Shown here: in pieces, positions 24,436-25,532 of the stretch
How positions within the stretch are numbered: the stretch's first letter is position 1
How the letters are laid out: each line of letters opens with the position of its first letter
Source of the DNA: an uncultured Bacilli bacterium
GTDB lineage: Bacteria; Bacillota_I; Bacilli_A; RF39; UBA660
NCBI GenBank assembly: GCA_947628685.1
Contig: CANRAT010000002.1
Coordinates: 1 to 41,185, forward strand
Reading direction: 5' to 3'
DNA length: 41,185 nucleotides
Notes under the pieces: generated by a model
Told to the model about the DNA's origin: nothing
The model's input: the letters and a program-made list of their open reading frames with translations, nothing else
Databases searched by the model: none
Program-made: the position numbers and the translations under genes

Positions 24436-24885
24436 ATGAAAAAAGGTTTTACACTTATAGAATTACTTGCAGTAATAGTAATACTAGCAATAATAGCGCT
24501 TATAGCAACACCCATTATATTAAATATAATAAATGATTCTAAAAATGAAAGTGAAAAAGTAAGTAAAGAATTATATTTAGATGCGGTAATACAAGCAATT
24601 GCAAAAGAAAATTTAAATAATGAGTTTAATCCAAGTATTTGTACAATTGAAAGTGATGGTAACTTATTATGTATACAAAATAGCAAAATAGAAAATTTAA
24701 GAGTTGAAGTAAATGGAACAAGACCATGTGGGGGAGCAATAGCTCTAAATAGTTTGGGAGTAACAAATGAAACAATAAGTTTTACTTGTGATTCTCCATC
24801 ATTTGCAAAAGATGATTGGCTAACAATAATAGCTAATATAAAGGTAGGAAAAGATGTATATAAAGTAGGGGATGAAAAAAAATAA
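24436..24885 (+). CDS. Prepilin-type N-terminal methylation domain protein (5' part of a split gene)
   Basis: MKKG/FTLIELLAVIVILAIIALIATP. The ORF ends at TAA immediately after an A8 tract. The track starts at 24430; the ATG at 24436 is better spaced from the AGGAGGAAG RBS. Confidence 0.8.
   Translation: MKKGFTLIELLAVIVILAIIALIATPIILNIINDSKNESEKVSKELYLDAVIQAIAKENLNNEFNPSICTIESDGNLLCIQNSKIENLRVEVNGTRPCGGAIALNSLGVTNETISFTCDSPSFAKDDWLTIIANIKVGKDVYKVGDEKK
24875..24882 (+). repeat. Homopolymeric A8 tract at the frameshift point
   Basis: Counted directly. An A9 tract would join frame 1 (24436-24885) to the open frame that runs from 24876 to 25532. Confidence 0.9.
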
Positions 24886-25037
24886 TATTAAATGGAGAAG
24901 GATTTAATAATCAATCATATACAGTAAGATTAGCAAATATTTCTAATGATGAGAATGAAGGATGTGGAGGAACAAACTTTTCTGAAACGGCATGTGGCAT
25001 TGTAATAGAATTTGTAGATATAATTACGAAACATAAT

Positions 25038-25532
25038 ATGAATACAACTAATCCAAATAAAGGAGGCTGGCCATCAAGCGAAATGAGAAAGTACTTAAAT
25101 GTAATTGAAAATGAAGAGGGTAGTGGAACAATATTTAAAGCATTACCAGAAGAATTGCAGAAAGTTATAATACCAACAAAAGTAATATCAGGACATAGAA
25201 ATATCACAGAAGCAAATTTTGAATCGATAGATAAAATATATCTATTGTCATTACATGAAGCATATGAAGAGGGGATTTTAAATAAGTTAAGTCAATATGA
25301 TACTGCATGGGATAACACAAGACAACTAGATTATTATAAAAATTATAAAGAACAAGGAGTAACAACAGATGATTATGAGGGTGCGATTAAAAAATATAAT
25401 GATGTAGCAATCGATTGGTGGTTGCGCACTGGTTCTGGTGATTATTTCTTTCATGCGAATTATGATGGTAGTTTAAGCTCTCATGTCGCTTATTATACCC
25501 TCGGCGTGGTTCCAGCATTTAGAATAGGCTAA
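25038..25532 (+). CDS. DUF6273-like domain (3' part of the split gene)
   Basis: GGWPSSEMRKYLN..LPEELQ..., IYLLSLHE, WWLRTGS and GVVPAFRI match the pattern I recall for DUF6273. There is no RBS before the ATG at 25038. Confidence 0.55.
   Translation: MNTTNPNKGGWPSSEMRKYLNVIENEEGSGTIFKALPEELQKVIIPTKVISGHRNITEANFESIDKIYLLSLHEAYEEGILNKLSQYDTAWDNTRQLDYYKNYKEQGVTTDDYEGAIKKYNDVAIDWWLRTGSGDYFFHANYDGSLSSHVAYYTLGVVPAFRIG

Follow-up and report, generated by a model that had tools for sequence, protein, structure and literature searches.

The window, the whole stretch of DNA analysed here (41,185 nt, 26% GC), derives from an uncultured Bacilli bacterium and contains, within a region that we read directly (24100-25800), a pilin-like gene that is split by a run of eight adenines (A8, 24875-24882). 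The upstream open reading frame (ORF; 24436-24885, + strand) closes with the codons GAT GAA AAA AAA TAA, its stop codon lying at 24883-24885. It encodes 149 aa when read from ATG 24436 and 151 aa when read from ATG 24430, the former being the likelier start, located 9 nt 3' of an AGGAGG motif (24421-24426). The A8 run (+ strand), with the zero-frame context GA A AAA AAA TAA, marks the frameshift point, from which the -1 frame continues uninterrupted from 24876 to 25532 (+ strand, 218 codons) and encodes a DUF6273 / C-type-lectin-like ligand-binding module. The annotated downstream ORF (25038-25532) shares this frame and represents only the distal 164 codons of the continuation. Ahead of Met-25038 the -1 frame encodes KKIILNGEGFNNQSYTVRLANISNDENEGCGGTNFSETACGIVIEFVDIITKHN, and a start-codon scan of 24876-25038 revealed no in-frame ATG, GTG or TTG. 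Direct reading likewise found no purine-rich Shine-Dalgarno sequence upstream of ATG 25038.

Addition of a single A fuses both frames into one ORF, which encodes 365 aa when read from 24436 and 367 aa when read from 24430, and removal of two A's (A6) likewise restores the frame. In the restored frame the protein stretch across the junction is VGDEKKIILNGEGF, with VGDEKKIILNGEGFNNQSYTVR as the junction peptide, while the truncated allele keeps the first ~30 residues of the C-terminal module before reaching TAA. The original prediction, made from the letters and an ORF list, had placed the A8 run and the end of the upstream ORF as given here, described the downstream frame as open from 24876 with no ribosome-binding site before 25038, and proposed that one inserted A (A9) joins the frames; direct reading bore out each of these points. 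Its fused length of 367 aa is right from ATG 24430 and wrong from 24436 (365 aa), and the truncated product, given there as 150 aa, is in fact 149 or 151 aa.

The two ORFs are one modular type IV pilin gene, in which a pilin module is followed by a DUF6273 module. The restored protein matches Pfam N_methyl (E=5e-7) and TIGR02532 (E=2e-8) and carries the prepilin leader MKKG|FTLIELLAV, a class III signal peptide with its cleavage/methylation motif (G|FTLxE, Glu5). It also matches Pfam DUF6273 (E=9e-15) over residues 199-364, corresponding to profile positions 21-170; with the domain so placed, the annotated downstream ORF lacks the start of its own domain. The grafted C-terminal module is thus recognisable in the restored frame only, the present allele truncating DUF6273. 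Searching 5.8 billion protein clusters, we obtained 6,701 matches and checked the architecture of the best 120. Both domains were present at 99-100% query coverage in 118 of these 120 best homologues, with lengths of ~350-400 aa; a few homologues (P0006 and P0069) have DUF6273 without N_methyl. In an alignment of 18 sequences, comprising the restored protein of the window and 17 homologues, the junction VGDEKKIILNG aligns free of gaps to the family consensus VGDEKEIxLxG, and V144, G145, K148 and L152 are invariant. The claim that one gene is interrupted at a homopolymer is therefore fully borne out by the domains, the homologue coverage and the gap-free junction.

An AlphaFold2 model of the restored protein reached a mean predicted local distance difference test score (pLDDT) of 83, with values of ~90 across the junction. 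It consists of an α1 helix of 55 residues (7-61), a small pilin module formed by a β-sheet (strands 68-115) and a C-terminal globular module. Using Foldseek, we found the model to match DUF6273 phage proteins, with E-values down to 3e-14, as well as entry 9qa6, the Thomasclavelia ramosa IgA peptidase (E=9e-7), in which DUF6273 is annotated as the N-terminal domain (PMC12402451). DUF6273 has been described as a C-type-lectin-like receptor-binding domain and a frequent target of diversity-generating retroelements (DGRs), its variable region being C-terminal (PMC10743442; bioRxiv 10.1101/2024.10.15.618418).

This architecture is that of the modular type IV pilins of monoderm bacteria, a class defined for PilB (vWA module) and PilC (lectin module) of Streptococcus sanguinis (PMC8179133, PMC9934059). 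As in those proteins, a class III signal peptide and a small pilin module are joined through a short linker to a ligand-binding module. Here, however, the module is DUF6273 (C-type-lectin-like) rather than vWA or concanavalin-like, and the gene stands alone in the window, apart from pilus machinery, and is frameshifted; no prepilin peptidase and no assembly ATPase or platform protein was found among the 30 window ORFs scanned. The S. sanguinis modular pilins have a predicted position at the pilus tip and a predicted role in adhesion (PMC8179133, PMC9934059). The restored protein would most likely be displayed at the tip of a pilus or pseudopilus, where we infer a role as an adhesin. For annotation, both ORFs should be merged and flagged as a single frameshifted modular-pilin gene, the 164-aa "DUF6273 protein" not being a real product. 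The family of pilins fused to C-type-lectin-like modules to which it belongs is very large and uncharacterised, occurs in uncultured gut Bacilli, and numbered over 6,000 homologues in our first search.

A look-up of the 149-aa product returned a contig of 41,185 nt, the length of the window, which is therefore probably a whole contig of a metagenome-assembled genome. Looking up the exact 164-aa sequence identified two further contigs, L081 (sample ERZ27249530, 3.4 kb, 4x coverage) and L082 (sample ERZ27249541, 0.76 kb, 3x coverage), from different samples of a single ENA study. The A8 run and its flanks are identical in the window, L081 and L082, so that the tract is A8 in three of three assemblies and of another length in none, as judged from consensus sequences in which minority reads are invisible at 3-4x. 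The exact fused proteins expected from A9 and A6, with either 5' variant, were absent from ~15 billion protein sequences, and the products of A7 or A10 were likewise not on record. Apart from P0123, an intact but diverged relative, the two clusters at 90% identity contained only the split halves, with no other length variants. A scan of JGI metagenomes for the tract context, with A7-A10 allowed, gave no match, and the organism appears in one ENA study only.

The A8 run is thus genuine in three assemblies. A sequencing or assembly error, with A9 or A5GA3 in the true genome and an intact gene, was one of the causes originally offered, and homopolymers are indeed a classic site of indel errors, L081 and L082 have a coverage of just 3-4x, and a single study lies behind all the data. 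However, three separate assemblies agree base for base, which makes such an error unlikely. In addition, the SPAdes-style contig names suggest short reads, in which A8/A9 errors are rare, the harder run of eleven guanines (G11) in the promoter of the gene was assembled both in the window and in L085, an intact allele, and other A8 runs of the window are in frame. Taken with these points, we regard an error at this site as very improbable.

The A8 run by itself is not unusual in the window. We counted 20 A or T runs of at least 8 nt, and of the 11 sense-strand A8 runs inside ORFs 10 lie in intact ORFs, several of the housekeeping type, including those encoding Ddl, YchF, a UvrD-like helicase and the adjoining P-type ATPase. 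Runs of A7 and A8 are plentiful in coding sequence, but no A or T run of at least 9 nt was found in any window ORF, and all three 9-mers are intergenic. A restored A9 would therefore be unique among the coding runs of the window. The absence of runs of at least 9 nt from ORFs suggests selection against them in this 26% GC organism. A further A8 run (37522-37529) lies within a ~900-nt stretch (37088-37991) devoid of ORFs of at least 90 aa.

To trace the origin of the run, we compared it with the nearest intact alleles that have DNA on record, L083 (encoding P0123), L084 (P0002) and L085 (P0005), all from the same study; P0001, P0003 and the 151-aa version of the window ORF have no such DNA record. 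Their junctions (GAAGAAAAAGAAATA, GAAGAAAAAGAAATAGTA) read GTA GGA GAA GAA AAA GAA ATA GTA, that is, A5-G-A3, where the window has GTA GGG GAT GAA AAA AAA TAA TA. Subtraction of the single G from the tract of the relatives gives exactly the G-A8-TA of the window, the flanking codons differing by separate substitutions. At position 149 most of the 17 aligned homologues have Glu, and not one has Lys. Among seven intact homologue genes examined, none has an A run of at least 7 nt at the junction, and all seven full-length homologues from GTDB representative genomes are encoded in a single frame. The comparison of orthologs that had been suggested (A8 versus A9, fused versus split) thus returned intact single ORFs throughout, none of them with A8 or A9. 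These sequences show the A8 tract to be specific to this allele and not conserved, and it is not an evolved, conserved switch.

The simplest and most economical origin that we infer is the deletion of the lone G from an ancestral GAA AAA GAA ATA (E-K-E-I) at codon 148/149. Loss of this G would create the frameshift and the A8 run together, in one event. A two-step alternative would involve a G-to-A substitution giving A9, followed by the loss of one A. The A8 run is probably the scar of a deletion rather than its cause, an origin that the original prediction had not considered, just as it had not considered rescue at the RNA level.

Beyond the shift, the reading frame is almost free of decay. 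Of the columns there, the restored protein retains 40 of the 41 invariant across the 17 homologues and 69 of the 71 conserved in at least 15 of the 17, the only departures from the near-invariant columns being F189I and A333G. Upstream of the shift, all 37 invariant and all 54 near-invariant columns are retained. No second disabling lesion was found in the -1 frame, which is open over 218 codons, so the gene does not have the several lesions of a multi-lesion pseudogene. This near-complete retention indicates that the frameshift is very recent or that the frame is still under selection. Because no differences separate the three A8 copies across the gene body, dN/dS since the frameshift is uninformative.

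We moderately favour a recent, genuine one-base deletion that has inactivated one copy of a redundant, variable family of modular-pilin adhesins. The present allele can encode only the 149-aa pilin module, with nearly all of the lectin module lost, and would represent a recent loss-of-function copy, either OFF or an early pseudogene. In principle, A8 could revert to A9, giving E-K-K-I, and could leak some full-length protein through slippage of RNA polymerase or the ribosome. The loss may be tolerated given the paralogues, the family being redundant and mosaic, with highly variable 3' halves and frequent poly-G runs in promoter or leader. Among the causes originally offered, recent pseudogenisation fits best, since further lesions are lacking, the tract is absent in relatives and the difference amounts to one G. 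The lesion itself is probably ordinary. Events of this type are well known, from M. hominis vaa (PMC524362) and L. monocytogenes inlA (PMC2831843).

Several points weigh against this explanation. A gene for a surface adhesin whose promoter contains a G11 run is typically the kind to vary in phase, and the absence of a second lesion also fits a reversible switch. Short coding poly-A switches have precedents among relatives of this lineage: the run in M. hominis vaa is ON at A8 and OFF at A7 or A9, switching at 1e-3 to 1e-4 (PMC524362), and L. monocytogenes inlA provides another precedent (PMC2831843). The frameshift allele persists in three samples, and has therefore not been quickly purged. 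Finally, the three assemblies are of low coverage (3-4x), come from one study and may sample one clone, their consensus sequences cannot reveal minority A9 reads, and L081 is possibly chimeric across a ~300-nt stretch that is identical between alleles.

One rival explanation is reversible translational phase variation, in which replication slippage would toggle the gene between A8 (OFF, a headless pilin) and A9 (ON, pilin plus lectin) as a second switch atop the promoter G run. The gene is otherwise intact and encodes a surface adhesin of a variable family. In 15 of 75 AT-rich related loci, poly-G runs precede pilin-like genes, and in three of these (L044, L068, L075) a G run sits inside the leader coding sequence (CDS), where G9 is in frame and G10 out of frame. 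Moreover, coding switches of A7-A9 have precedents in Mollicutes (PMC524362) and in Listeria (PMC2831843). The vaa gene is a close parallel, encoding a surface adhesin of a low-GC lineage with a short coding A run that shifts the frame and a mosaic, cassette-like 3' half that differs between strains. The vaa tract, however, is conserved, lies near the 5' end and has been observed in both states (PMC524362, citing Zhang & Wise 1997), whereas the tract described here occurs in one allele only, at 40% of the gene, and has been seen just at its OFF length. The inlA gene is similar in that a circulating poly-A frameshift truncates a surface adhesin and the allele persists (PMC2831843), and different in that its tract is at the extreme 5' end and its reversion was measured. 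Against a switch at this site, all three assemblies have A8 and products of A9, A6, A7 or A10 are not on record; the tract is missing in all relatives, whose sequences point to GAA as the ancestral codon; A8 is stable in the genes for Ddl, YchF, the helicase and the ATPase; and the recurrent tract of the lineage is poly-G, not poly-A. Phase variation through A8, as envisaged in the original prediction, is thus possible and unsupported, with no length polymorphism, an unconserved mid-gene tract and A8 runs common in the window, and we consider it unlikely.

Another rival is recoding at the RNA level: with an extra A introduced by RNA polymerase on A8/T8, or a -1 ribosomal slip before UAA, a single template would yield the 149-aa pilin together with some full-length protein. 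The sequence A AAA AAA at 24876-24882 forms a perfect zero-frame X XXY YYZ slippery heptamer directly before the UAA stop, and a -1 shift there gives the conserved ...EKKIILNG. In tssM of C. rodentium, an A11 run undergoes ~20% transcriptional slippage (PMC4256274), poly-A slippage rescues genes in Buchnera and Blochmannia (PMC5009743), and 151 of 157 insertions in Buchnera transcripts fall in homopolymers (PMC5574713). In those cases, as here, an A run directly precedes a premature stop, and one more A in the transcript brings a conserved C-terminal domain back into frame. Their runs, however, comprise 9-11 or more A's, known bacterial slippage sites being mostly at least 9 A/T (PMC5009743), while the run considered here is A8 and specific to one allele; tssM, moreover, needs both of its products and has a conserved arrangement (PMC4256274). 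We found no stable RNA structure in the 100 nt 3' of the site that could stimulate a shift (minimum free energy -11 kcal/mol, z=-0.27 against shuffled sequences), and the frameshift is conserved in no homologue examined, so a programmed frameshift is not supported. As for a Shine-Dalgarno-like stimulator 5' of the run, the GGGGA there is separated from it by only 4 nt, and its sequence is dictated by the conserved Val-Gly-Asp codons. By analogy with the cases above, incidental leakage at A8 is plausible, and recoding as the explanation of the split is improbable. Still harder to credit is a functional split, with the pilin module and the DUF6273 fragment made as two proteins. It finds a parallel in the few homologues that have DUF6273 without N_methyl (P0006, P0069), but the -1 frame has neither a start codon before 25038 nor a ribosome-binding site there, and the 164-aa fragment has no signal sequence. 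The fragment also misses the first ~55 residues of the domain, including the conserved Cys177/Cys187 pair and FSETACG, and no relative among the GTDB homologues is split.

Upstream of the gene, a terminator-like hairpin with a T-run (24344-24365, + strand), the only such site in 24200-25700, ends a glucosaminidase-like gene (ORF 23742-24356, assigned by Pfam) and abuts the pilin promoter; the pilin gene therefore depends on a promoter of its own. This promoter was read directly. It contains a -35-like TTGACA (24370-24375, + strand), for which the paralogous pilin-like gene of the window has TTGACT (9321-9326), and a putative extended -10-like element, TGaTAAAAT, assigned from consensus (24393-24401, + strand). 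The G11 run (24380-24390, + strand), the sole G or C run of at least 6 nt in the 41 kb window, lies inside the 20-nt spacer (24376-24395); G8 would give a spacer of 17 nt. The 5' leader GTGTAAGTAAACTAA and the Shine-Dalgarno sequence AGGAGG (24421-24426) follow at 24406-24426 (+ strand), the leader being common to the second pilin-like gene and, largely, to L081. A standard promoter scan, which covers spacers of 16-18 nt, makes no call for this promoter with its 20-nt spacer.

From its position, the G11 run is plausible as a promoter-spacer switch, and we judge that the state with a 20-nt spacer is probably weak or OFF. The intact allele encoding P0005, from another sample, has the same arrangement (L085:52-84, TTGACA-cgta-G11-cgtgg-TAAAAT), including the 20-nt spacer. 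G11 is therefore not tied to decay of the gene, and the shared length would mean either that G11 is favoured or that OFF is too simple a description of a 20-nt spacer. An extended -10 (TGn) is present in both promoters, and no length change was seen between them. Homopolymers that act as promoter-spacer switches include the poly-A tracts of M. hyorhinis vlp and the poly-C tracts of Bordetella fim. As in vlp and fim, the homopolymer described here lies between -35 and -10 and its length sets that of the spacer; it differs in that no length variation has been observed at the locus and in that the extended -10 may lessen the dependence on spacing. The two stacked switches originally envisaged for this gene presuppose such a role for the promoter run, which is real and plausibly regulatory, with the qualification that its length is unchanged in L085.

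The second pilin-like gene (9378-10157) encodes 259 aa with N_methyl as its only domain, its Cys-rich C-terminal part having no Pfam match. Its 5' leader is nearly identical to that of the split gene, and the first 32 residues after the initial Met are the same. Its promoter (TTGACT, 17-nt spacer, TGgTAGAAT) contains no G run.

The survey of poly-G runs covered the 75 AT-rich related loci mentioned above, mostly metagenome-assembled genome records labelled uncultured Bacilli, Tenericutes or Mycoplasmatota. They contain 15 G runs of at least 8 nt, every one of which lies on the sense strand and within 300 nt upstream of a pilin-motif gene, a zone that makes up 2.9% of the searched space (binomial P ~1e-23, with paralogues that are not independent). 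The runs, of G9-G11, occur in L010, L012, L013, L027, L028, L038, L040, L044, L045, L058, L062, L068, L070, L075 and L080. They represent at least five upstream architectures, some in promoter-spacer positions and others ~150-240 nt upstream. In L044:3971-3980, L068:92-101 and L075:3974-3982 the run falls inside the CDS of the prepilin leader, as in MVANSNF-GGG-YLKNTNKKGFTLIE; by codon-by-codon reading, the frame is kept with G9 (L075) and lost with G10 (L044, L068). Such a run would be a translational poly-G switch.

Judged from these sequences, the family looks phase-variable through poly-G. The idea of phase variation is therefore reasonable in spirit, but the habitual tract of the lineage is G and not A. 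A metagenome scan for TTGACA-N4-polyG-GTGnTAAAAT returned five unrelated contigs (L086-L090) with G8-G13 and different genes downstream, their spacers measuring 16-21 nt when counted from the printed sequences, so that the design is widespread. These five contigs provided no length polymorphism at a same locus. The poly-G runs upstream of pilin-like genes are of more interest than the A8 run and merit a follow-up of their own: if they switch expression, they would provide variation in adhesins and in host or partner recognition in a lineage without cultured members.

Two further features accompany the G runs. In L010, L013, L028 and L040, a long, perfectly paired hairpin and then a T-run (aaacacaaagtttctagact...agtctagatttctttgtgttttttt) lie ~20-130 nt downstream of the G run, and the order G run, TATAAT-like box, hairpin, T-run and pilin gene looks like that of a terminator or attenuator in the leader. 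The motif TAGCAAATAG precedes the G run in L027, L038, L045 and L075, with the variant TAACAAATAG in L068.

A comparison of alleles with window 24411-25534 revealed a mosaic organisation: 5' pilin halves that are nearly identical, reaching 100%, are followed by 3' lectin halves of only 55-85% identity, with values as low as 55-60%. In steps of 100 nt, the identity of L083 to the window is 89, 100, 100, 99, 88, 84, 85, 76, 62, 55 and 59%, and L084 and L085 have similar profiles along the gene. L081, L083 and L084 share an upstream helix-turn-helix (HTH) gene, but each of the three has its own 3' half and its own downstream gene, while the window and L081 share the 3' half and the downstream ATPase and differ in the promoter and the first ~100 nt. 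Upstream flanks consist of an HTH/Germane pair or a helicase/glucosaminidase pair, and downstream flanks of a P-type ATPase, a signal-peptide protein or a GerE-type regulator. As read from these alignments, the pattern fits recombination at a conserved 5' pilin cassette. L081 was kept as a possible independent haplotype and not accepted as such, since the ~300-nt identical stretch could yield a chimeric contig at 4x.

Toward the 3' end of the gene lies a hypervariable A-poor segment (25417-25508, + strand) with 16% A, compared with 45% in the rest of the gene. These ~90 nt form the most variable stretch of the alignment and directly precede the conserved GVVPAFRIG (GV(A/V)PAFRIG in the family). 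By analogy, the segment resembles the variable region of a DGR target. Phage tentaclins and Mtd-like receptor-binding DGR proteins belong to the same DUF6273/C-type-lectin family and fold (PMC10743442, bioRxiv 10.1101/2024.10.15.618418), and DGR variable proteins likewise have a hypervariable, adenine-depleted C-terminal stretch before a conserved end motif. In contrast to the phage proteins, the domain is here carried by a cellular pilin and not by a phage tail protein, and no template repeat or reverse transcriptase (RT) was found nearby. A search for a template repeat of 25331-25540 found none in the window and none within ~4 kb of the homologous genes checked, and the window ORFs scanned include no RT domain, although a DGR elsewhere in the genome could act in trans. 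Targeting by a DGR was accordingly not adopted beyond this resemblance.

More broadly, uncultured gut Bacilli with small genomes (labelled 'Tenericutes', 'Bacilli' or Mycoplasmatota incertae sedis) might possess a large repertoire of pilin-lectin adhesins with layered variation, through poly-G runs, swaps of 3' halves and DGR-like tips, to which an A8/A9 toggle between bare and lectin-tipped pilin would be added in the present case. We find this combined scheme unlikely.

A scan of genome contigs with the single protein identified no relative, and an alignment-based scan was keyed on the pilin N-terminus and returned mostly other pilin-like genes. Elsewhere in the window, two large proteins with SpaA domains (prealbumin-like fold) are encoded at 14037-19509 and followed by a sortase, with a second sortase further on (32461-33324). 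These genes look like a sortase-assembled pilus or surface-protein cluster, and would therefore point to a walled organism with another type of surface fibre. Finally, an Abi_2 protein (29381-30337) and a TOTE-type AEP-primase/helicase (34724-37087), together with several ORFs that have no Pfam match, possibly form a defence island.

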